Shown: piece by piece, positions 16,753-32,785 of the stretch
Layout of the letters: each line of letters opens with the position of its first letter
Numbering within the stretch: position 1 is the stretch's first letter
Source of the DNA: Minisyncoccota bacterium
GTDB lineage: Bacteria > Patescibacteriota > Minisyncoccia > Phycocordibacterales > JABAAK01
Assembly: GCA_965222235.1 (NCBI GenBank)
Contig: OZ244939.1
Coordinates: 400,107-464,106, forward strand
Length of the DNA stretch: 64,000 nt
Reading direction: 5' to 3'
Notes under the pieces: model-generated
The model's database searches: none
Seen by the model: only the letters and a program-made list of their open reading frames with translations
Told to the model about the DNA's origin: nothing
Translations under genes and position numbers: made by a program

Positions 16753-17900
16753 CCCAAGTTCAAACAAATAATAGAACACCTGTCATATACCAAGTAATAC
16801 TGGAGACATATGACAAAAGCAAAGAAAAAGAGACGGGAACCGTTCACCCGTCTGAATATTCATGAACGGAGTAGTATTGAAGTGAGATACTGTGCTGACA
16901 AGAGATCCCTGCGGGAGATAGCGAAAGAGTTGGGCAGGTCACCGGGAACCATACATCGGGAAATAGGGGGAAAACCGAGAAAAGGAGTCGGACGGTACTG
17001 CGCGCTGAGGGCACAGCGGGAAGCAGAGAAAAGGATACACACCCGGGGGAGGAAAGGAGTGCTGACCGACAGAGCACTCCTTGGGTATGTGCGGGAGAAG
17101 ATGGAGGAAGGATGGTCTCCCGAGCAGGTGAGTATTCGTCTTCCCCGGGAGTTTCCGGAGGACACAACCATGCGGGTATCTCATGAGACGATATATACCT
17201 TCATATATGCGCAGATTCACCAAAGCGGACACGGTATCGTGAAACCGGGGTATCTAGACTTACGGTCTCTTCTGCCGAGAAGAAGGAAGAGACGCATACG
17301 GCAAGGAGTGAGAAACACACAGAAAACAGAACGAAGAGCGGCCTTGCCCTCCATAGAGGAGAGACCGGGGATAGAGGGGGTAATCGGTCATTGGGAAGGT
17401 GACACCATGCTCTCAAGGAAAAGCAGCGTTAGGGTAAAGAGTATGAATGAAAAGATGACCGGTCTGGCATTCTTTGAGAAAACAAAAGACGGTACCGCTG
17501 AGTCCTGTGACGCGGCAATCATCAGACGAATGCGCGCTGTCCCTCCGAGATACCGCAAGACCCTCACCCAGGACAGAGGGGCGGAGAATAGGGGGTACCG
17601 CACCGTTGAAAAAGAACTCAGTCTCTCCTGCTACTTCGCCCATCCGTACTGCTCTCATGAAAGAGGATCAAACGAGAACACCAACGGATTGTTCCGTCGG
17701 TGTTTCCCGAAGGGGACTGACTTTGACAAAAGCAATGACCGTGACATTGCCAAGGTTGAGTACCTATTGAATACCCGTCCCAGGAAACGCCTTACTGGTC
17801 TGACCCCTTACGAGGTATTCTACCGCATGACCGGTGTCAATCTCCAGAGGATGGCATATTACAAACTGACAGGTGTTCAATTAGAAGTTTGAATGTAGGC
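16753..17900 (+). mobile_element. IS30-family insertion sequence, copy 1 (1148 bp).
   Basis: It is 100% identical to 29937-31084. Imperfect terminal IRs: TTCAAAC..TAAT(A/T)GAACACCTGTCA. It ends 1 bp from the metG stop codon. Confidence 0.85.
16810..17892 (+). CDS. IS30-family DDE transposase.
   Basis: 360 aa with an N-terminal HTH, the HWEGDTM motif typical of IS30 transposases, and a DDE core. It is identical to 29994-31076. Confidence 0.9.
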   Translation: MTKAKKKRREPFTRLNIHERSSIEVRYCADKRSLREIAKELGRSPGTIHREIGGKPRKGVGRYCALRAQREAEKRIHTRGRKGVLTDRALLGYVREKMEEGWSPEQVSIRLPREFPEDTTMRVSHETIYTFIYAQIHQSGHGIVKPGYLDLRSLLPRRRKRRIRQGVRNTQKTERRAALPSIEERPGIEGVIGHWEGDTMLSRKSSVRVKSMNEKMTGLAFFEKTKDGTAESCDAAIIRRMRAVPPRYRKTLTQDRGAENRGYRTVEKELSLSCYFAHPYCSHERGSNENTNGLFRRCFPKGTDFDKSNDRDIAKVEYLLNTRPRKRLTGLTPYEVFYRMTGVNLQRMAYYKLTGVQLEV

Positions 17901-23414: not shown

Positions 23415-23487
23415 CCGCCCATAGCTCAGTTGGTAGAGCAACGGCCTTTTAAGCCGGGGGTCCCAGGTTCGAGCCCTGGTGGGCGGA
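23415..23487 (+). tRNA. tRNA-Lys (TTT).
   Basis: ccgcccatagctcagttggtagagcaacggccttTTTaagccgggggtcccaggttcgagccctggtgggcgga. Acceptor ccgccca/tgggcgg, T-arm ccaggttcgagccctgg. The first anticodon-stem pair is mismatched and the 5-prime end is an unusual C1. Confidence 0.7.
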
Positions 23488-24966
23488 CTTTCCAGTACAA
23501 GCAAAGACACATTCACTATCGCTCGTGTGGCTGTCTTGGTCCGCGCGCCCGCAGGGCGCGCGGTAGAGGGTTTTCCACGCGCCGCGGGGCGCAAAGGTCA
23601 CACCGGTGTCGGCGAGTCGGCGGTTCAAGCCAACCTCTTTGAAAAAATCCGCCAAATCGGCAGGGTCGGTGCTATCAGTAACATTTCGCATTGCAGTTGC
23701 TTGCTCAATCACCAAAAGTGCCGGTTCAAGCCACGAATCATCATCGCCCGAGACACTCCGCAGTTTCTCCTTGATATCCATCTTTTTACCAAGTAGGATA
23801 TTTTTCTTGGCAATGTATTCTTCACGGGTGATATCACCAGAAAGAGACATATCAAGAAGATGGTCCATCTGCCCCTCAAACGCCCGCAAATCAGCGCGGA
23901 GTGTCTCGGTGCGACTTACTCCCGCCTGAGCGTCTGCATTGTACAAATCGTAAAGTTCATCTGAAATTCCACCAGCTTCGGCGGGAGTAAGGGAAACTTT
24001 TTGTAGTGCTGAGCGAACCTCCTCGTCAATTCTCTCACTGCGAACATATTTACCCGCACACTTCCCTTTTTTCTTAGTGCAGTGATAGTAGGTATGCCCT
24101 TTTTGAATTGATGAGGTGATGGAACAGCCACAATGCGCGCAGACAAGCATCTGGCGGAACGGATACCGCGCCGGGTCATGCTGCCGCACTTCCCGTCCCC
24201 GCTGTTCCATAATCGCTCGGCACTGATCAAAAAGTTTCTTGGTGATAAGTGGCGTATGCGCACCCTCGTGGGTTTCGCCGCCCCACGCTACCAAACCGTA
24301 ATATATCGGATTGTTAAGTATCCAGTGAACATTGCTCGCCGGAGTAAGATTGCCACGCCTGTTTTTAAATCTGAGAGACCGAAAGGTGAACTTACCGGTG
24401 GCATATTTTTCAAAAAGCGAAACCACGAGGGGTGCATACTCGGGGTCGGGGTCTATAGTATTCGTGTTGCGGTTATTTATATACCCGAAAGGTGCTCGTG
24501 ACGGGTGGATACCCCGCCGCGCCTTATTCCTCATACCACGGCGAACATTCTCGCTGAGGTTGTCTACATAGAGTTTGCTCTGACCGAATGCGAGGGTGAG
24601 GCAGAAAATACCGTGTGGTGTATTTTCAAAAGTGTAAGTCGGAAAACGCAGAGCAGCACCGCGTTGCTCCACCAATTCAACCAGTTTTGCGCCGTCCGTC
24701 ATATTGCGGGCAAGTCGGTCCGGATGCCAGGATAAAATGCCTTCCGCCTCACCCAGGGCGATGCGACCGAGCATCGCCTCAAAAACTTTTCTCCCGGGTT
24801 GCTTGGCGGATTGTTTCTCCGTCAAAACCTCAGTCACACTGACACCATTCTTGCGAGCGAAAGCGCGCAACTCTGCAATCTGATCGGGTATACTCTGCAC
24901 CTGTTTGTCTCTGTCATCAGTGCTTTTGCGAGCATATATAAAAAGTTTTTGCAAGCGTTCGGTCAT
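23449..24966 (-). CDS. Large serine recombinase (resolvase-type catalytic domain, recombinase domain, zinc ribbon).
   Basis: Trimmed to MTERLQKLFIYARKSTDDRDKQVQSIPDQ (catalytic Ser in YARKST). The zinc ribbon is CAHCGCSIT...YYHCTKK...C. The ORF 3-prime end runs 39 bp into tRNA-Lys on the antisense strand. Confidence 0.85.
   Translation of the reverse strand: MTERLQKLFIYARKSTDDRDKQVQSIPDQIAELRAFARKNGVSVTEVLTEKQSAKQPGRKVFEAMLGRIALGEAEGILSWHPDRLARNMTDGAKLVELVEQRGAALRFPTYTFENTPHGIFCLTLAFGQSKLYVDNLSENVRRGMRNKARRGIHPSRAPFGYINNRNTNTIDPDPEYAPLVVSLFEKYATGKFTFRSLRFKNRRGNLTPASNVHWILNNPIYYGLVAWGGETHEGAHTPLITKKLFDQCRAIMEQRGREVRQHDPARYPFRQMLVCAHCGCSITSSIQKGHTYYHCTKKKGKCAGKYVRSERIDEEVRSALQKVSLTPAEAGGISDELYDLYNADAQAGVSRTETLRADLRAFEGQMDHLLDMSLSGDITREEYIAKKNILLGKKMDIKEKLRSVSGDDDSWLEPALLVIEQATAMRNVTDSTDPADLADFFKEVGLNRRLADTGVTFAPRGAWKTLYRAPCGRADQDSHTSDSECVFACTGKSAHQGSNLGPPA
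23488..23629. repeat. 142-bp perfect inverted repeat, left copy. It encodes the last ~49 codons of the recombinase and contains the palindromes ccgcgcgcccgcagggcgcgcgg and gacaccggtgtc.
   Basis: The reverse complement of 25058-25199 is identical by eye. Confidence 0.85.
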
Positions 24967-25057
24967 AGTAAACGAATTGTACCATACCGACCCCGAACAA
25001 AATAAAGTACAAAGCACCGCCCTGCCAAAATAAAAAGTTTTTTAAAAAGTGGATGGT

Positions 25058-25476
25058 CTTGAACCGCCGACTCGCCGACACCGGTGTGACCTTTGCGCCC
25101 CGCGGCGCGTGGAAAACCCTCTACCGCGCGCCCTGCGGGCGCGCGGACCAAGACAGCCACACGAGCGATAGTGAATGTGTCTTTGCTTGTACTGGAAAGT
25201 CCTCTGAACAAGTAGCACTTGAACTCAAAAAACATTTTACCGAAGACACCTCGCACGCTCCACCCGCCCCGTAACTTTAATCCCAAAAGTGCCGCCAGAC
25301 AATCGCTCCGCTTACTACGGGCTCATGCTCGCAGGCTCACACCAGCCCTCCGTGCGCTCCGCTCCCGCGCCAATCACGCCGGCAGATTCTTTTTCAATTC
25401 AGCCCGCCGCCCAACCCCGCGTGCTCGCCGTTGCACCGTGTCGGGTCGGATATGGGAGTGGACGGGTGGTTTCTGA
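25058..25476. repeat. Right inverted copy of the recombinase 3-prime cassette (25058-25199) plus a 277-bp downstream segment (25200-25476). The downstream segment recurs inverted at 31401-31676.
   Basis: The plus-strand ORF 25053-25274 encodes the same C-terminal peptide as the recombinase. The ORFs 25219-25476 and 31403-31657 encode identical 85-aa stretches. Confidence 0.8.
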
Positions 25477-25514
25477 GTGCACAATAAAGACACGACAGCA
25501 CGCGAACAAACAGC

Positions 25515-25620
25515 AAAAGGATCTGCCGGCGTGATGGGGCGGGAGAACTATATGCAATCCGCCATCTTTCCTGCTTGCAAATGCTTGCGGAAAAGGCGGA
25601 TTTCCTTTATCCGACACAGG
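25515..25620 (+). repeat. Roughly 105-bp direct repeat R1 (partner at 26145-26250) with an internal imperfect hairpin and a GCTTGC-N5-GCTTGC direct repeat.
   Basis: The two copies align at about 85% identity. Confidence 0.7.
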
Positions 25621-25647
25621 GTGTCACAAGATGTACAATGGTTTTAT

Positions 25648-26142
25648 ATGACACAAAACAGTAACGGGTCAGACAAGGAAAATCAGGAAAATGCCCGAAA
25701 TAATTATTTGGAGGCAGGAAAGAGCGCAAATCAATTGCTAATTCCCGTGTTGATTGCTGTGCTTGGTCCTACCATCGCATCTCCAGATCTTTTATACCCG
25801 GCCGCACTTATTCTTTTTCTTTCTATAATATCTCTAATTATTCATAAAATGAGACAGATGTGTTTCTTTATGGATGAAAAAAACGGCGGAAAACAATATG
25901 AAGAAAGAGAGAGATTTATCAAAAACATTCCTTGCTTTTTGTTTAGTTTTTATCTGCTCGTCATATTGACTTTTGTATTTCTGTCATATACCATCCTTAC
26001 TATGAATGAAGATCAGAAAGATTTCAAGCCGGAAAGGAGAAATTCTCCGACTCACGAAAGGGATTTTAAACCAAACAAATCGGCACCTAATACCACACCA
26101 CCTACCCCAAGTCCTCAACCCAAGCCGAAAGAAAGTCAATAA
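25648..26142 (+). CDS. Small membrane protein (2-3 TM helices) with a Pro/Thr-rich tail.
   Basis: Trimmed to MTQNSNGSDKENQ. It has hydrophobic helices and AT-rich codon usage typical of the island. Confidence 0.4.
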   Translation: MTQNSNGSDKENQENARNNYLEAGKSANQLLIPVLIAVLGPTIASPDLLYPAALILFLSIISLIIHKMRQMCFFMDEKNGGKQYEERERFIKNIPCFLFSFYLLVILTFVFLSYTILTMNEDQKDFKPERRNSPTHERDFKPNKSAPNTTPPTPSPQPKPKESQ

Positions 26143-26144
26143 GG

Positions 26145-26250
26145 GGAAAAGAATCTGCTGGTGTGATAGCAAGGGAGAACTATGCGTAATCCGCCATCTT
26201 TCCCGCTTGCAGACGCTTGCGGAAAGGGCAGATTTCCTTGTCCTGCTTGA
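26145..26250 (+). repeat. Direct repeat R2, the partner of R1.
   Basis: See R1. Confidence 0.7.
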
Positions 26251-26312
26251 TTTTATATTTATATATGTGAATAACTAAAATTGAAAGATTTTTTACTAGT
26301 ATTATGATAGTA

Positions 26313-27256
26313 ATGAGTGAGAAACATAAGGTTGTTTCGTTGTTTTCTGGTTGTGGGGGTCTTGATTTAGGTATTTTGGGAGGATTCACGGTATTCAAGA
26401 AAAAATACCAAAAACGAAAATTTGATATTGTCTGGGCAAATGATTTTGACAAGAATGCTTGTGAAACATTTAAAAAAATATAGGAGATCACATTGTTTGT
26501 GGGGATATAGCTAAACTTCTGCAAAATAAAAAAGAATTTTTAAAATTTGACAATATAGATGTGGTGATAGGCGGTTTTCCATGCCAAGATTTTAGTATCG
26601 CAGGAAAAAGAAAGGGAACACAAACAAAAAGAGGTAAACTATATAAAAGTTTTATTGAGGTTGTTGAATTATTACAACCAAAAATTTTTTTAGCCGAGAA
26701 TGTGAAAGGGATTTTATCTATAAAAAGCGGTTCTGTGATTAAAAAAATTATATCTGATTTTGAAAAAATCGGTTACAAGGTCGAGTATAAGTTGTTTCAT
26801 GTCGCTGATTTCGGAATTCCCCAAAATAGGGAGAGGGTTTTAATGGTCGGAGTTAAAAACGGAGCTGGAAATTTTATTTTTCCAAAACCAAAAACTAAAA
26901 AGAGGCTCTCAGTTGGTCAAGTAATACAAGATTTAGAACACTTACCGGAAGGTGCTATTCACAATCACTTTTGGAGTAAAGCAAGAAAGAATAGTGGACA
27001 GGGAAATACTCGTATTAATAAAAATAAAATTGCTCCGACAATGCGCGCCGAGCATCACGGAAATATAGAATACCATTGGAATAAGAGGAGGAGGTTGTCC
27101 GCAAGAGAGGCTGCAAGGATTCAATCGTTCCCTGATAACTTTATTTTTTACCCATCAACTTCCCAAGCATACAGGCAAATTGGAAACGCTGTTCCACCAG
27201 TGATGGGTTGGCATATGGCGAAAGCGATGGAGAATTTTTTTGAGAGGTCTCTATGA
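26313..27256 (+). pseudogene. DNA (cytosine-5)-methyltransferase (Dcm-type) interrupted by a -1 frameshift in an A7 tract at 26471-26477.
   Basis: The N-terminal ORF MSEKHKVVSLFSGCGGLDLG carries motif I and stops at TAG at 26478-26480. Motif IV GGFPCQDFS, motif VI ENV and motif X QIGNAVPP continue in the +1 frame (track ORF 26561-27256). One extra A restores a single ORF of about 314 aa. Confidence 0.75.
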
Positions 27257-27921
27257 TTTATGCGACAGAAAAGAACGCAACAGAAAAAGATTTTCTCTCC
27301 CTACTTGAAGAATCAAAAAACCTTCTTTTAAAAAATATAGCCACTAACAAAAATTATCAACCATTAGATTTTGAAACCTTTGTTTATGAGACGATGCGCA
27401 ATGTGGCAAAAGAAACAGTATTTGAGGGAACTATTGAACGAACTGGAAAATTTGGCTTTCCTGATGTTTTGGCAAATAGATACTTTGGGGTTGAAGTAAA
27501 GATGACAAAACAAGATAAGTGGACATCAATTGGAAACAGCATATTTGAAACATCCAGAGTTGATGATGTGGAAAGAATATTTATTCTCTTTGGAAAATTT
27601 GGCGGTAATTTTGATGCGCGTTATAAGGCATATCAAGATTGTTTACCATCAATTAAAGTGACACACTCCCCCAGATATGTTATTGACATGGAATTATCGG
27701 TCAACGAATCAATATTTGAAAAAATAGGAACTGATTATGAATCTTTCAGAAAAGATGAAAACAAGGTTCATTTAATTAAGACATATTACAAAAAGCAATT
27801 AAAAGATGGAGAGGAATTATGGTGGATGGATGAATCTCAAGAAAAAAGTGTTGCGCCAATTATTCGCTCATTTCAAAATCTTGAAGAAAAAGAAAAGAGG
27901 GTTTTGTTGTTGAGAGTGTGA
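27253..27921 (+). CDS. Candidate type II restriction endonuclease (PD-(D/E)xK).
   Basis: FGFPDVLANRYFGVEVKMTK gives D..E-x-K. The start overlaps the methyltransferase stop (ATGA). It has the island's low GC. Confidence 0.45.
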   Translation: MIYATEKNATEKDFLSLLEESKNLLLKNIATNKNYQPLDFETFVYETMRNVAKETVFEGTIERTGKFGFPDVLANRYFGVEVKMTKQDKWTSIGNSIFETSRVDDVERIFILFGKFGGNFDARYKAYQDCLPSIKVTHSPRYVIDMELSVNESIFEKIGTDYESFRKDENKVHLIKTYYKKQLKDGEELWWMDESQEKSVAPIIRSFQNLEEKEKRVLLLRV

Positions 27922-28055
27922 TTTTATTTCCAGAAATTTTTGGCAGTAGCAGATTAAAATTTGAACGGGCGGCAATTTATCTGGTCACTGAATACAATAC
28001 TGTTTGCTCTAACCTGAGAGATATTTTTACTGCGGGCGGGTAAGAGGATGTTAAT

Positions 28056-28319
28056 ATGGCAAAGGAAAGATATTGTGTTCCACATATTTACTCTGAAATG
28101 CATAAGAGGGCGAAAATAATAGAAGAAAGAATAAAAGAAATGAATAGTGAAACTCTTTTATATTATTGGCGCATTGGTCATCTAAGTAAGGATAGGGTAT
28201 CTCAATGGAAACTCCTTTTAGAAAAAAATACAAAGTCATCAATTTCCTCCGAGCGGATTAAAGATAAACCGCAAAAGATATCAATAACAGATATTTTTGA
28301 AAGTGGTTTAAATATTTAA
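28056..28319 (+). CDS. Hypothetical 87-aa protein.
   Basis: ORF between the REase candidate and vsr; no recognisable family. Confidence 0.3.
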   Translation: MAKERYCVPHIYSEMHKRAKIIEERIKEMNSETLLYYWRIGHLSKDRVSQWKLLLEKNTKSSISSERIKDKPQKISITDIFESGLNI

Positions 28320-28321
28320 AT

Positions 28322-28750
28322 ATGGCGGATAAATATACGAAAGAACAGAGATACATTATGATGTCGTCTGTTAAAAGTAGAAATAACAAAAGCACAGAAC
28401 TTGTTTTTATCTCTTTGCTCCGCACAAATAAAATAACAGGATGGCGAAGACATTATCCGATAGAGGGAACGCCTGATTTTGTTTTTCCAAAAGAAAAGAT
28501 CGCAGTATTCATTGATGGTTGTTTTTGGCATAAGTGTCCGAAGTGTTACAGAAGGCCGAAATCAAATAAAGCGTATTGGGACCAAAAAGTGGAAGACAAT
28601 CAAAGAAGAGACGCAGCAAAGAGAAGGTCCTTGCGCAAACAGGGGTGGCATGTTGTTCGCATCTGGGAACATGAATTAAGCGGGAATAACAGATCTATAA
28701 TTAAAAGGCTTCAGAAAATATTTCCGGCACATTATGATTCTATCGCTTGA
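28322..28750 (+). CDS. vsr: Very-short-patch repair endonuclease.
   Basis: It has FIDGCFWHKCPKCY and TPDFVFPKEKIAVF, the Vsr catalytic and Zn motifs. 142 aa. Confidence 0.85.
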   Translation: MADKYTKEQRYIMMSSVKSRNNKSTELVFISLLRTNKITGWRRHYPIEGTPDFVFPKEKIAVFIDGCFWHKCPKCYRRPKSNKAYWDQKVEDNQRRDAAKRRSLRKQGWHVVRIWEHELSGNNRSIIKRLQKIFPAHYDSIA

Positions 28751-29883
28751 TCATTAAAAATGCGCAGCAAATCTTTTATTCCTTTTGCAATCAAACCTTC
28801 ATCAACAGATTTTTCTTCCTCCGGGTGAGCGAACTCATGTCGTAACTTTGTGACATATGTTATATCATTCCCTGAAGCATCTTTTTCATCAGCGAGCAGT
28901 GGCTTACCTTCAGTATTATTCTTACCCGCCAAACGCTCTGAATCAAATTTGTCATATGAATTAATACCGCTCTTAATTTTAAAATGTTCGTACAACTCAA
29001 GGAAGTAAGATTCACTCAGCTGATTAAACACAAAATAATTTATCTCCGAATGAGACCTATACCCTAACACGGACCAAGAATTATCCATATGTTTTAGTGT
29101 GGTGGACTTGGTGTTCTGATCACGGGAAACCTCGTATATTTTATCATCTCTGTTCAACCTCACAAAATCCGGATCATGTGTTGTTATCGCCACTTTCACA
29201 TCAACACCGCTTCCATCTTCTTTTTTGAGCAGTTTCTTAATCATCGTGTTCAGGCTCTTTTTCCACTCCGGGTGCAGATACGCTTCTGGCTCTTCTATAA
29301 GTAGTAGTATTTTTTTGTTACCACCACTGGCGTAAATTTTTTTGTAGTATAAAATAAACGCTATAGACATTAATCTCTGAGAACCCTGCCCTATCGAATC
29401 TAAGTCAATCTCATTATCCTTCTCACGATATTGGTCAAGCGCTTTCACTCCAATTAATTTTCTCACATCATCAGGACCAAAATCAGAACCCATAGATATA
29501 ATGACCTTTTTATCCTCAACACCGCTGTCCGATAAAATTTTGTTTATCTCGTCTTCGGCTTTCTTTTTCTCCCCACTTTTATCAAACTTGCTGATTAAAT
29601 CCGACAAAATAGTTTCATCCACAATCTCATTCAATATCGGGACAACAGTTTTTGAAAATTCGCTTCCTTTTTGAGATGTTGAACATTCAGTCCTCGGATC
29701 AATTTGATCTGACCTGATATAAATAACCTCACACTCTGGGTCAACTTCTTTTTTGTAGTTTTCATGAATATGACACAAAATATTTGATTTCCCTGCATTA
29801 TTTTTTCCAGCAAAAACAGTATAATCAGCGAGTTCAAACTCAATTTTGTCAGTTATGCTTTTGTAGTTCTCTATTGAAATCAT
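28732..29883 (-). CDS. AAA_21/ABC-type ATPase of the OLD / AbiEii / PARIS-AriA / Septu-PtuA class, with no partner gene.
   Basis: It has the Walker A FAGKNNAGKSN, a Q-loop/signature-like SIGQGSQRLMSIAF, the Walker B LLLIEEPEAYLHP and an H-loop ITTHDP. 383 aa. Its start is 54 bp from the end of IS30 copy 2. Confidence 0.7.
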   Translation of the reverse strand: MISIENYKSITDKIEFELADYTVFAGKNNAGKSNILCHIHENYKKEVDPECEVIYIRSDQIDPRTECSTSQKGSEFSKTVVPILNEIVDETILSDLISKFDKSGEKKKAEDEINKILSDSGVEDKKVIISMGSDFGPDDVRKLIGVKALDQYREKDNEIDLDSIGQGSQRLMSIAFILYYKKIYASGGNKKILLLIEEPEAYLHPEWKKSLNTMIKKLLKKEDGSGVDVKVAITTHDPDFVRLNRDDKIYEVSRDQNTKSTTLKHMDNSWSVLGYRSHSEINYFVFNQLSESYFLELYEHFKIKSGINSYDKFDSERLAGKNNTEGKPLLADEKDASGNDITYVTKLRHEFAHPEEEKSVDEGLIAKGIKDLLRIFNDQAIES

Positions 29884-29936
29884 AACTGCATTCTGCCAAA
29901 ATACACCACATTGAGCAAGATGACAATATGATGCGC

Positions 29937-31084
29937 CCCAAGTTCAAACAAATAATAGAACACCTGTCATATACCAAGTAATACTGGAGACATATGACAA
30001 AAGCAAAGAAAAAGAGACGGGAACCGTTCACCCGTCTGAATATTCATGAACGGAGTAGTATTGAAGTGAGATACTGTGCTGACAAGAGATCCCTGCGGGA
30101 GATAGCGAAAGAGTTGGGCAGGTCACCGGGAACCATACATCGGGAAATAGGGGGAAAACCGAGAAAAGGAGTCGGACGGTACTGCGCGCTGAGGGCACAG
30201 CGGGAAGCAGAGAAAAGGATACACACCCGGGGGAGGAAAGGAGTGCTGACCGACAGAGCACTCCTTGGGTATGTGCGGGAGAAGATGGAGGAAGGATGGT
30301 CTCCCGAGCAGGTGAGTATTCGTCTTCCCCGGGAGTTTCCGGAGGACACAACCATGCGGGTATCTCATGAGACGATATATACCTTCATATATGCGCAGAT
30401 TCACCAAAGCGGACACGGTATCGTGAAACCGGGGTATCTAGACTTACGGTCTCTTCTGCCGAGAAGAAGGAAGAGACGCATACGGCAAGGAGTGAGAAAC
30501 ACACAGAAAACAGAACGAAGAGCGGCCTTGCCCTCCATAGAGGAGAGACCGGGGATAGAGGGGGTAATCGGTCATTGGGAAGGTGACACCATGCTCTCAA
30601 GGAAAAGCAGCGTTAGGGTAAAGAGTATGAATGAAAAGATGACCGGTCTGGCATTCTTTGAGAAAACAAAAGACGGTACCGCTGAGTCCTGTGACGCGGC
30701 AATCATCAGACGAATGCGCGCTGTCCCTCCGAGATACCGCAAGACCCTCACCCAGGACAGAGGGGCGGAGAATAGGGGGTACCGCACCGTTGAAAAAGAA
30801 CTCAGTCTCTCCTGCTACTTCGCCCATCCGTACTGCTCTCATGAAAGAGGATCAAACGAGAACACCAACGGATTGTTCCGTCGGTGTTTCCCGAAGGGGA
30901 CTGACTTTGACAAAAGCAATGACCGTGACATTGCCAAGGTTGAGTACCTATTGAATACCCGTCCCAGGAAACGCCTTACTGGTCTGACCCCTTACGAGGT
31001 ATTCTACCGCATGACCGGTGTCAATCTCCAGAGGATGGCATATTACAAACTGACAGGTGTTCAATTAGAAGTTTGAATGTAGGC
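29937..31084 (+). mobile_element. IS30-family insertion sequence, copy 2, identical to copy 1.
   Basis: It aligns base-for-base with 16753-17900 at an offset of 13184. Confidence 0.85.
29994..31076 (+). CDS. IS30-family DDE transposase, copy 2.
   Basis: Its 360-aa sequence is identical to copy 1. Confidence 0.9.
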   Translation: MTKAKKKRREPFTRLNIHERSSIEVRYCADKRSLREIAKELGRSPGTIHREIGGKPRKGVGRYCALRAQREAEKRIHTRGRKGVLTDRALLGYVREKMEEGWSPEQVSIRLPREFPEDTTMRVSHETIYTFIYAQIHQSGHGIVKPGYLDLRSLLPRRRKRRIRQGVRNTQKTERRAALPSIEERPGIEGVIGHWEGDTMLSRKSSVRVKSMNEKMTGLAFFEKTKDGTAESCDAAIIRRMRAVPPRYRKTLTQDRGAENRGYRTVEKELSLSCYFAHPYCSHERGSNENTNGLFRRCFPKGTDFDKSNDRDIAKVEYLLNTRPRKRLTGLTPYEVFYRMTGVNLQRMAYYKLTGVQLEV

Positions 31085-31400: not shown

Positions 31401-31800
31401 AAGAAACCACCCGTCCACTCCCATATCCGACCCGACACGGTGCAACGGCGAGCACGCGGGGTTGGGCGGCGGGCTGAATTGAAAAAGAATCTGCCGGCGT
31501 GATTGGCGCGGGAGCGGAGCGCACGGAGGGCTGGTGTGAGCCTGCGAGCATGAGCCCGTAGTAAGCGGAGCGATTGTCTGGCGGCACTTTTGGGATTAAA
31601 GTTACGGGGCGGGTGGAGCGTGCGAGGTGTCTTCGGTAAAATGTTTTTTGAGTTCAAGTGCTACTTGTTCAGAGGACTTTCCAGTACAAGCAAAGACACA
31701 CTCACTATTGCTCGTGTGACTTCCTTCTGCAACACGCCCTTCCAACCTGTGGTAGAGGGTTTTCCATGGCGCAACGCAGGACAAAGCAACGACATCGCTG
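31401..31800. repeat. Third copy (B) of the recombinase 3-prime cassette plus its downstream segment. It is in the orientation of the tRNA-Lys-proximal copy. 31401-31676 is near-identical to the reverse complement of 25200-25476; 31677 to about 31800 is a diverged recombinase 3-prime end.
   Basis: The minus-strand ORF 31602-31817 ends ...ECVFACTGKSSEQVALELKKHFTEDTSHAPPAP, as does 25053-25274. Confidence 0.75.
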
Positions 31801-31864: not shown

Positions 31865-32512
31865 ATGACTGATATTTTTATAGACGAAAGTGGAAATTTA
31901 GGGAAAGGAGAAAGATTTTTTATCATCTCGGTAATACAATTCAATTCCGACAACGATTATAAAAAATGGAAAAGAGTCGCAAGGAAAATTATAAAAAATA
32001 AAAAACACCTAAAAGAAATTAAATCTTCTTCAATGGATTACACTTTGAAGAGGGAGGTCTTGGAGCAGGCTAGAAAGCAAGATATAAAATTCAAAGTTTG
32101 GCTTGGTATTATTGATACAGATCACGACTATTACAAACAGAAATTTATAATGCAAGACAACTCTAAAGAGCTTGCTTTTAACTATACTTTAAAAAAGTTA
32201 TTCAAAGAGACAATTGCAAAAGAAATTCAAAAAGAAGTGGCCATAGTATATGTTGATCAGCGAAACACCAAAACAGGATCAAGATATTCGTTGGGTGATT
32301 ATTTAAACGCAGAAATTCTTCACGACCCGGATGTCCCACTACAAAAGATTATTATTTATTACCAAGATTCAAAGAATAATTATGGCATCCAACTATCAGA
32401 TCTGATTGCAAATATTACTTACACCAAACTTGAGCACAATAAATCAAAATATCTTTTTAAAAAATATGTGAGTCCAAGATTATCAGGTAAATGCAAATAC
32501 CCAGAGTGTTGA
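31865..32512 (+). CDS. DUF3800-family protein.
   Basis: The N-terminal MTDIFIDESGNLGKG matches the DUF3800 signature (I-F/Y-I-D-E-S-G). 215 aa. AT-rich island gene. Confidence 0.55.
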   Translation: MTDIFIDESGNLGKGERFFIISVIQFNSDNDYKKWKRVARKIIKNKKHLKEIKSSSMDYTLKREVLEQARKQDIKFKVWLGIIDTDHDYYKQKFIMQDNSKELAFNYTLKKLFKETIAKEIQKEVAIVYVDQRNTKTGSRYSLGDYLNAEILHDPDVPLQKIIIYYQDSKNNYGIQLSDLIANITYTKLEHNKSKYLFKKYVSPRLSGKCKYPEC

Positions 32513-32734
32513 GCTTGTGTATAAAACGAAGAGAGCCCCTGACGGGCTCCTTCTAAGCAACTTATACTTCGGTGCCGTATAACGACACTTAACCGGCATT
32601 ATGCTTGGGTCTCCATATAAGATTTATGCCTACAACCAGTATATACATCTTCAACCCACTTTTCCAGGTCCTTGTGAAAAACACAAAATTGGTTGACATA
32701 TAAAGAATATTTTATACCACCCCCCTTCCCCAAA

Positions 32735-32785
32735 GTAGGATATTTTTCTTGGCAATGTATTCTTCGCGGGTAATATCACTTGCCG
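32735..32785. repeat. About 50-bp fragment homologous to an internal part of the serine recombinase gene (23795-23845).
   Basis: aagtaggatatttttcttggcaatgtattcttc[g/a]cgggt[a/g]atatcac is shared at both positions. Confidence 0.6.

Follow-up and report, generated by a model that had tools for sequence, protein, structure and literature searches.

Does a low-GC gene cluster in the genome of a Minisyncoccota bacterium encode a compact defence set built around a new nuclease, or does it hold a damaged copy of something already catalogued? The cluster lies in a 64,000-nt stretch of DNA (contig OZ244939.1 of assembly GCA_965222235.1, positions 400,107 to 464,106 of the forward strand), the whole of which we call the window and by whose own numbering all positions are given. 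An earlier note made from the sequence alone had described here a Dcm-type methyltransferase gene, a 222-aa protein with a PD-(D/E)xK motif, an 87-aa open reading frame (ORF) of unclear role, a vsr gene and a convergent ATPase gene. We find that the order of methylase, PD-(D/E)xK restriction endonuclease (REase) and Vsr is present as described, and that the 222-aa and 87-aa ORFs are pieces of a single broken REase gene. The block is very probably a horizontally acquired, decayed Type II restriction-modification (R-M) cassette, composed of the following genes:

26304-27256, plus strand: C5 cytosine DNA methyltransferase gene, frameshifted (Pfam PF00145, TIGR00675)
27253-28319, plus strand: Type II restriction endonuclease pseudogene, PD-(D/E)xK, of the family of PADLOC model PDLC03508
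28322-28750, plus strand: vsr, very-short-patch T:G mismatch endonuclease, 142 aa, intact (Pfam PF03852, E 3.7e-17)

The endonuclease pseudogene and the frameshifted methylase

Three-frame translation of 27253-28321 indicated how the two small ORFs are related. The frame of the 222-aa ORF (27253-27921) stops at 27919-27921, and a second open stretch, in the third frame, starts after a TGA at 27882-27884; this same frame holds the 87-aa ORF (28056-28319) after a single TAA at 28041-28043. The pseudogene thus runs through the 222-aa ORF, continues through a connecting stretch read in the third frame, and ends with the 87-aa ORF; its length of 1067 nt would, with one extra base, give 356 codons. 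Codon-level comparison with the closest related cassettes (L002 and L003) showed that the first lesion is most simply a one-base loss within 27893-27898 (GAA AAG/GAG). The second turned AAA into the stop TAA at 28041-28043, a position that encodes Lys or Gln in homologues. We repaired the gene conceptually by reading frame 1 to about 27897 and frame 3 from there on, with X in place of the TAA. As a query, the 355-aa sequence obtained in this way retrieved 778 homologues, the best of which were 343-358 aa long and matched 99-100% of it at up to 66% identity. When aligned to 15 homologues, the repaired protein was colinear from M1 to the C-terminus across both lesions, with X falling at the K/Q position and the 87-aa ORF aligning to residues 269-355 of the full-length enzymes. 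Because the 87-aa ORF shares its frame with the stretch that follows the 222-aa ORF, from which a single TAA parts it, because the repaired product has full-length matches and because the alignment is colinear, we conclude that they are one gene. Programmed recoding of the REase was rejected, as it would require a frameshift plus read-through of the TAA.

The earlier note had taken the 222-aa ORF for a complete nuclease, and it does carry the FGFPDV...EVK motif (residues 67-83); it is, however, only the 5' 62% of a gene of about 355 codons. A functional stand-alone 222-aa endonuclease of a new family, accompanied by an independent 87-aa gene, is very improbable. The fragment keeps the whole catalytic core, including PD...EVK, and its start overlaps the methylase gene by 4 nt. 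Set against this, the frame of every full-length homologue runs through both ORFs, the REase is a single uninterrupted ORF in 43 of the 53 related loci described below, and the fragment matches only positions 33-208 of the 340 in the PDLC03508 profile (E 1.1e-34). Moreover, an active endonuclease beside a frameshifted methylase would be lethal. Neither ORF has a Pfam match. The 87-aa ORF, which had been judged atypical of a controller protein, indeed did not qualify as one and had no PADLOC match either; it begins inside a conserved region and represents the conserved C-terminus of the REase rather than a separate gene.

The methylase gene is also broken. Two plus-strand ORFs in different frames make it up, one of 59 aa with motif I (26304-26483) and one of 231 aa (26561-27256), and the remainder after the N-terminal piece continues in the -1 frame from 26477. 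Its identity as a C5 methyltransferase is clear: Pfam PF00145 (DNA_methylase, E 3e-65) matches both pieces, the TIGR00675 score is 204 bits against a cut-off of 100.65, and the motifs FSGCGG (I), GFPCQ (IV), ENV (VI) and QxRxR (VIII) are all present. The lesion is the loss of 1 nt in the A run at 26472-26478, which has seven A where eight are needed (A7 and A8 below). A single added A gives a 317-aa methylase with all C5-methylase motifs that is 79% (L002) and 77% (L003) identical over its full length to intact 314-aa methylases. At the lesion site, the L002 and L003 genes read TTT AGA AAA AAT by codon-level comparison; a G-to-A change in the window copy created an A8 run that then lost one A. 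The need for a repaired methylase had been hinted at by the earlier note. The methylase and REase genes overlap by 4 nt (ATGA, 27253-27256), as had been proposed; the same proposal for vsr does not hold, since the REase gene ends at 28319 and a 2-nt gap separates it from vsr.

The position of this lesion in an A run raises the question of whether the methylase might still be made. It could be alive at a low or variable level through slippage of RNA polymerase or -1 ribosomal slippage on A7, acting as a phase-variable solitary methylase together with Vsr after loss of the REase. In other reduced genomes, slippage is an established way of rescuing poly-A frameshifts. Shifting by -1 on AAA AAA (26472-26477) gives exactly the conserved TFKKNIGD, and ATA and TAG come directly after the slippery run. 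Over 317 codons this is the only lesion of the methylase, and vsr has no damage. We nevertheless consider this unlikely: a run of seven A is short for slippage in transcription to be efficient, the heptamer (T AAA AAA) departs from the canonical A AAA AAG, and no stimulatory structure was found, although none was sought. In addition, homologues lack such a run (AGA AAA AAT), which argues that the tract is a recent accident and not a conserved switch.

In the decayed cassette that we favour, vsr is the sole undamaged gene. Its product scores 109.2 bits with TIGR00632 (cut-off 97.85) and shows the TPDF and FIDGCFWH(K)C motifs, in agreement with the identification made earlier. Neither of the two genes on which a working R-M system depends is intact, the methylase carrying one frameshift and the REase one frameshift and one nonsense codon. 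That each damaged gene bears just one or two lesions suggests recent decay.

The endonuclease family, its gene order and its predicted function

The suggestion that the REase family could be new was not borne out: it is a catalogued and widespread family of Type II restriction enzymes. An intact homologue (P0001) matches the PADLOC REase_II model PDLC03508 at 1.4e-45, and an enterobacterial homologue from Klebsiella matches it over its full length at 4.7e-115. The latter, encoded on a plasmid (pINF177.2, UZL45477.1; locus L055, CP110748.1), is annotated as 'restriction endonuclease' and lies beside a cytosine methylase gene and vsr. An exhaustive profile search, counted in clusters at 50% identity, yielded 962 up to an E of 0.001 and 478 up to 1e-30. 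The family nonetheless has no Pfam, NCBIfam or PDB entry: full-length homologues matched no Pfam family (E up to 10) and no NCBIfam family, and a profile search of PDB sequences gave no match. A search of the literature on Vsr, restriction-modification and Patescibacteria found nothing about it. Named homologues were sought in phage records, where the three weak matches were all labelled 'hypothetical'. RefSeq gives the same label to the E. coli homologue WP_000572864.1, whose gene turned up in 15 out of the 5426 complete genomes of that species. We looked at a single E. coli locus, that of O55:H7 DEC5E (L059, NZ_CP038383.1, 5056451-5065670), where the REase gene accompanies a 366-aa C5 methylase gene and vsr in a mobilisable island that is integrated at tRNA-Phe and adjoins a Kiwa (KwaA/KwaB) system.

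Conservation within the family supports a nuclease, and here the earlier identification held. P70, D71, E81, V82 and K83, which make up the PD...ExK signature, are invariant in 68 aligned sequences, as are T137-H138 and P140-R141-Y142 of a THSPRY motif. Toward the C-terminus, R239, R256, D257, G263, Y305, W306 and W319 are invariant as well. The AlphaFold model of P0001 (mean predicted local distance difference test score, pLDDT, 81; predicted template modelling score, pTM, 0.63) has a restriction-endonuclease fold, with a predicted EcoRV-like catalytic core that resembles solved members of this class. Of the two outcomes that the earlier note would have taken as a refutation, a fold other than that of a nuclease and homologues devoid of conserved catalytic residues, neither was observed. 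A more far-reaching reading is that the REase is a structurally distinct EcoRV/SwaI-like enzyme whose new C-terminal domain serves recognition, possibly with a new specificity, and that A7 keeps the methylase switchable as a solitary epigenetic methylase with Vsr; we regard this as unlikely.

The sequence recognized by the cassette could not be read from its methylase. The best PDB matches of the methylase are M.HaeIII and M.HhaI, with an alignment that covers the catalytic motifs only; because the target-recognition region does not align to either enzyme, specificity cannot be derived from them. Palindrome avoidance in 410 kb of carrier loci (Markov observed/expected ratios for 4- and 6-mers) revealed general avoidance of many palindromes and no single outlier. 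EcoRV, SwaI, HincII, NlaIV and ThaI represent a fold class typical of blunt cutters, which is a hint only and not a result.

We compared gene order across 53 loci, of which 2 are on metagenome contigs and 51 come from species-representative genomes. In 50 of these loci the gene directly upstream of the REase gene encodes a C5 methylase, and in 35 the gene directly downstream is vsr. The carriers include Patescibacteria, Omnitrophota, Gammaproteobacteria, Spirochaetia, Bacteroidota, Thermodesulfobacteriota, Endomicrobia and a Clostridium-group isolate, so that the locus in the window exemplifies an R-M-Vsr cassette that moves between very distant phyla. The ORFs are uninterrupted in 43/53 loci for the REase and in 46/53 for the methylase. 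Decay of the cassette is therefore recurrent, affecting the REase in about 10/53 loci and the methylase in 7/53. REase or methylase ORFs were truncated or split in L039, L043, L049, L036 and L053, and some loci were cut by contig ends.

Two loci displayed a distinct methylase arrangement. In L029 (3919-5004) and L020 (3948-5001), one of which is on a Thermodesulfobacteriota chromosome and the other in a Spirochaetia metagenome-assembled genome, the cassettes are 80% identical in DNA, and the first ~70 methylase codons are inverted beside the rest of the gene. Inverted repeats of 18 nt, which encode '(I/L)VNAD', border the inverted segment, and re-inversion of the 239-bp segment in silico gives a full-length methylase ORF. 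Both loci have a tyrosine recombinase gene ~1.3 kb upstream and an intact REase ORF. This arrangement could be an inversion switch, or alternatively a stable split methylase with complementing fragments; a possible switch of this kind in relatives would be of modest wider value.

How the intact cassette would have worked can be proposed from the families of its genes. The methylase would have placed 5-methylcytosine in a short target and thereby protected it. The REase, probably a dimer, would have combined an EcoRV/SwaI-like catalytic core, with D71, E81 and K83, and a conserved C-terminal domain of ~150 residues, and would have cut unmethylated copies of the target in incoming DNA. Vsr would have nicked at T:G mismatches arising from deamination of 5-methylcytosine, such that methylated sites were not lost by mutation. 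The REase was presumably lost first, or together with the methylase, because loss of the methylase alone would have been lethal.

Several observations weigh against the reading of a decayed Type II cassette. Both frameshifts fall in A runs, where sequencing errors are most common, and the second assembly described below may come from the same or a related read set. In the P0001 model, D71 lies in a low-confidence loop, with residues 72-74 below a pLDDT of 50. Finally, the REase label rests on the motif, the modelled fold, synteny and the name of a PADLOC/REBASE-derived model, and the enzymatic activity is predicted. The first of these points leads to the alternative that the homopolymer frameshifts are sequencing or assembly errors, that the methylase is intact and active together with Vsr, and that the REase is truncated only by the TAA, to roughly 263 aa. 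Both indels do fall in A runs (A7 at 26472-26478; A4/A5 at 27887-27896), and the genome is in long contigs (641 kb), which suggests a long-read assembly. However, an independently assembled Logan contig (L001, reported in two samples) is 100% identical to window 26173-29966 over 3794 nt, and so a second assembly shows each of the three lesions with exactly the same bases. The TAA, moreover, is a substitution and no homopolymer error, so that the REase is broken regardless, and the C-terminal region that would be lost is strongly conserved, with Y305, W306 and W319 invariant. On this evidence error appears quite unlikely, and we retain the decayed cassette as the preferred reading.

The island at tRNA-Lys and the neighbouring ATPase

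The surroundings of the cassette contain further features, several of which are associated with mobility:

23415-23488, plus strand: tRNA-Lys, the left island edge (ARAGORN, Rfam)
23449-25017, minus strand: large serine recombinase gene, abutting tRNA-Lys (Pfam Resolvase, Recombinase, Zn_ribbon_recom)
25110-25474 (left arm) and 31402-31766 (right arm): 365-nt inverted repeat, 95% identity (repeat search, self-BLAST)
28732-29883, minus strand: 383-aa ABC-type ATPase gene (AAA_15/AAA_21; OLD/AriA/GajA-like), convergent with vsr (Pfam, PADLOC)
29937-31084, plus strand: IS30-family insertion sequence with 27-nt terminal inverted repeats; transposase 29994-31076 (NF033563 transpos_IS30, E 8e-65)
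31865-32512, plus strand: DUF3800 gene, 215 aa, GC 0.31-0.35 (Pfam PF12686, E 2e-14)

The composition of the block differs from that of the DNA around it. The GC content is 0.363 over 25482-29942 and 0.347 over the methylase, REase and vsr genes, compared with flanks of 0.507 (left) and 0.471 (right). Along the profile, GC is 0.33-0.39 at 25.5-30.0 kb, rises to 0.52 at 30.0-31.5 kb and falls to 0.31 at 32.0-32.5 kb; the IS30 element (GC 0.51) and a repeat break the low-GC stretch at 29937-31084. The low-GC block that the earlier note had estimated by eye is thus real, while its figure of 55% for the flanks is too high and the stretch is not continuous. A foreign origin follows from the contrast between a block GC of 0.35-0.36 and wider flanks of 0.47-0.51, together with the tRNA-Lys, recombinase, IS30 element and long inverted repeats around the block, and lateral acquisition, as had been inferred before, is well supported. 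The closest cassettes, L002 and L003, reside in genomes with a GC of 0.37-0.40.

The repeats add detail to this picture. The arms of the 365-nt inverted repeat enclose the low-GC block and IS30. A third repeat family lies on the tRNA side, where 23485-23647 and 25039-25202 are 97% identical in inverted orientation and overlap the sequence of the left 365-nt arm; the serine recombinase gene is bordered by near-perfect inverted repeats of 145-164 nt, and the tRNA-adjacent sequence is present in three copies within the island. A second copy of the recombinase has been reduced to a 47-nt remnant at 32733-32779. The combination of tRNA-Lys, recombinase, inverted repeats and recombinase remnant suggests repeated integration and inversion at tRNA-Lys. 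IS30 lies 54-60 nt upstream of the ATPase start, and a second copy of 1148 nt at 16753-17900 is 100% identical to it; two identical copies imply that the element was recently active in this small genome. Together, these features place the block in a mosaic mobile island at the tRNA-Lys of a Kaiserbacteria-like Patescibacteria genome. That the host is a member of the Patescibacteria, with a GC of about 0.5, follows from the PolA encoded in the window, whose best named matches are from Candidatus Kaiserbacteria (55% identity) and Paceibacterota.

On the left side of the island, a 221-aa ORF (25477-26142) without any family match is flanked by 93-nt direct repeats (25515-25607 and 26147-26239, 84% identical). 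Each of these contains a hairpin (AATCCGCC...GGCGGATT), with fold z-scores of -3.2 and -1.5. The direct repeats had no Rfam match, and a search of the whole window with Rfam returned tRNAs only.

The convergent ATPase gene had been counted as part of the defence set. The AAA_15/AAA_21 assignment stands (AAA_15 E 8e-25; best PADLOC matches Old, 1.6e-28, and AriA, 6e-27), and its 3' end overlaps that of vsr by 19 nt (28732-28750). Membership in the cassette was rejected, because the gene is not syntenic with it: an ATPase next to the cassette is absent from nearly all of the 53 related loci. The ATPase is therefore a separate module of defence type, unrelated to the R-M cassette. The protein consists of an ATPase domain followed by about 120 unassigned residues, with no Toprim (PF20469) or other nuclease domain, and no adjacent Toprim or DUF4435 partner was found, the neighbours being the convergent vsr and IS30. 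It has only four close relatives (377-409 aa); further matches are OLD nucleases of 500-670 aa, nearly all with Toprim.

A former partner of the ATPase may be preserved elsewhere in the island. In L056 (5090-7179), a DUF3800 gene precedes the closest ATPase homologue (57% identity) by 267 nt, in the same orientation. This DUF3800 gene is 52% identical to the one in the window, and the first 128 nt after it are homologous to window 32513-32646. The window copies point away from each other and are separated by 2 kb, in which IS30 and a repeat arm lie. By comparison with this single locus, DUF3800 followed by the ATPase was probably a pair that has been split by rearrangement. The genes upstream of the ATPase homologue in L057 and L058 are unrelated. 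A simple inversion between the 365-nt inverted repeats was considered as the cause of the separation and rejected, since its geometry fails to restore the L056 order.

The main value of the analysis is a correction, in that a compact new nuclease with a mystery small ORF becomes a pseudogenised copy of a widespread Type II enzyme. The 'defence set' of this genome is largely a graveyard, with methylase and REase dead and the ATPase parted from its probable partner. The analysis also provides a definition, at the level of gene neighbourhood and fold, for an REase family that is missing from Pfam, NCBIfam and PDB and occurs commonly in Patescibacteria, a group in which genetic work is hampered by R-M barriers.

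Comparison with known systems

The linkage of vsr to a Type II R-M system has precedents, among them Dcm-Vsr of E. coli and the HpaII methylase-REase system with its adjacent vsr homologue. Like these, the cassette in the window has a C5 methylase, a PD-(D/E)xK endonuclease and Vsr, which are tightly linked and co-oriented; the stop codon of the methylase gene overlaps the start codon of the REase gene, and Vsr would repair the T:G mismatches that arise by deamination of 5-methylcytosine. It differs from them in that its REase does not detectably resemble any of the Pfam REase families, RE_HpaII, RE_HaeIII and RE_HaeII included, and in that the methylase and REase genes of the window are pseudogenes.

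In the fold of its core, the family resembles the EcoRV-like (beta-class) enzymes SwaI, EcoRV, HincII, NlaIV and ThaI, with a sequence identity of only 8-13%. Unlike these enzymes, it has an extra conserved C-terminal domain of ~150 residues, and its D-to-ExK spacing of 9 residues is a further difference. The enterobacterial members of PDLC03508 belong to the same family and have in common with the window copy the C5 methylase and vsr neighbours and a location in a mobile defence island; they are, however, only 32% identical to the Patescibacteria branch. Their methylase and vsr genes are convergent with the REase gene, unlike the order in the window. The enterobacterial methylase is also longer (366 aa) and has an N-terminal HicB-like segment, so that its specificity may differ.

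The neighbouring ATPase is like OLD, AriA of PARIS and GajA of Gabija in having an ABC core with Walker A, signature, Walker B and H-loop. In contrast to these proteins, it has no Toprim domain and no adjacent AriB/DUF4435 gene and is only 383 aa long, and its nearest relative follows a DUF3800 gene.

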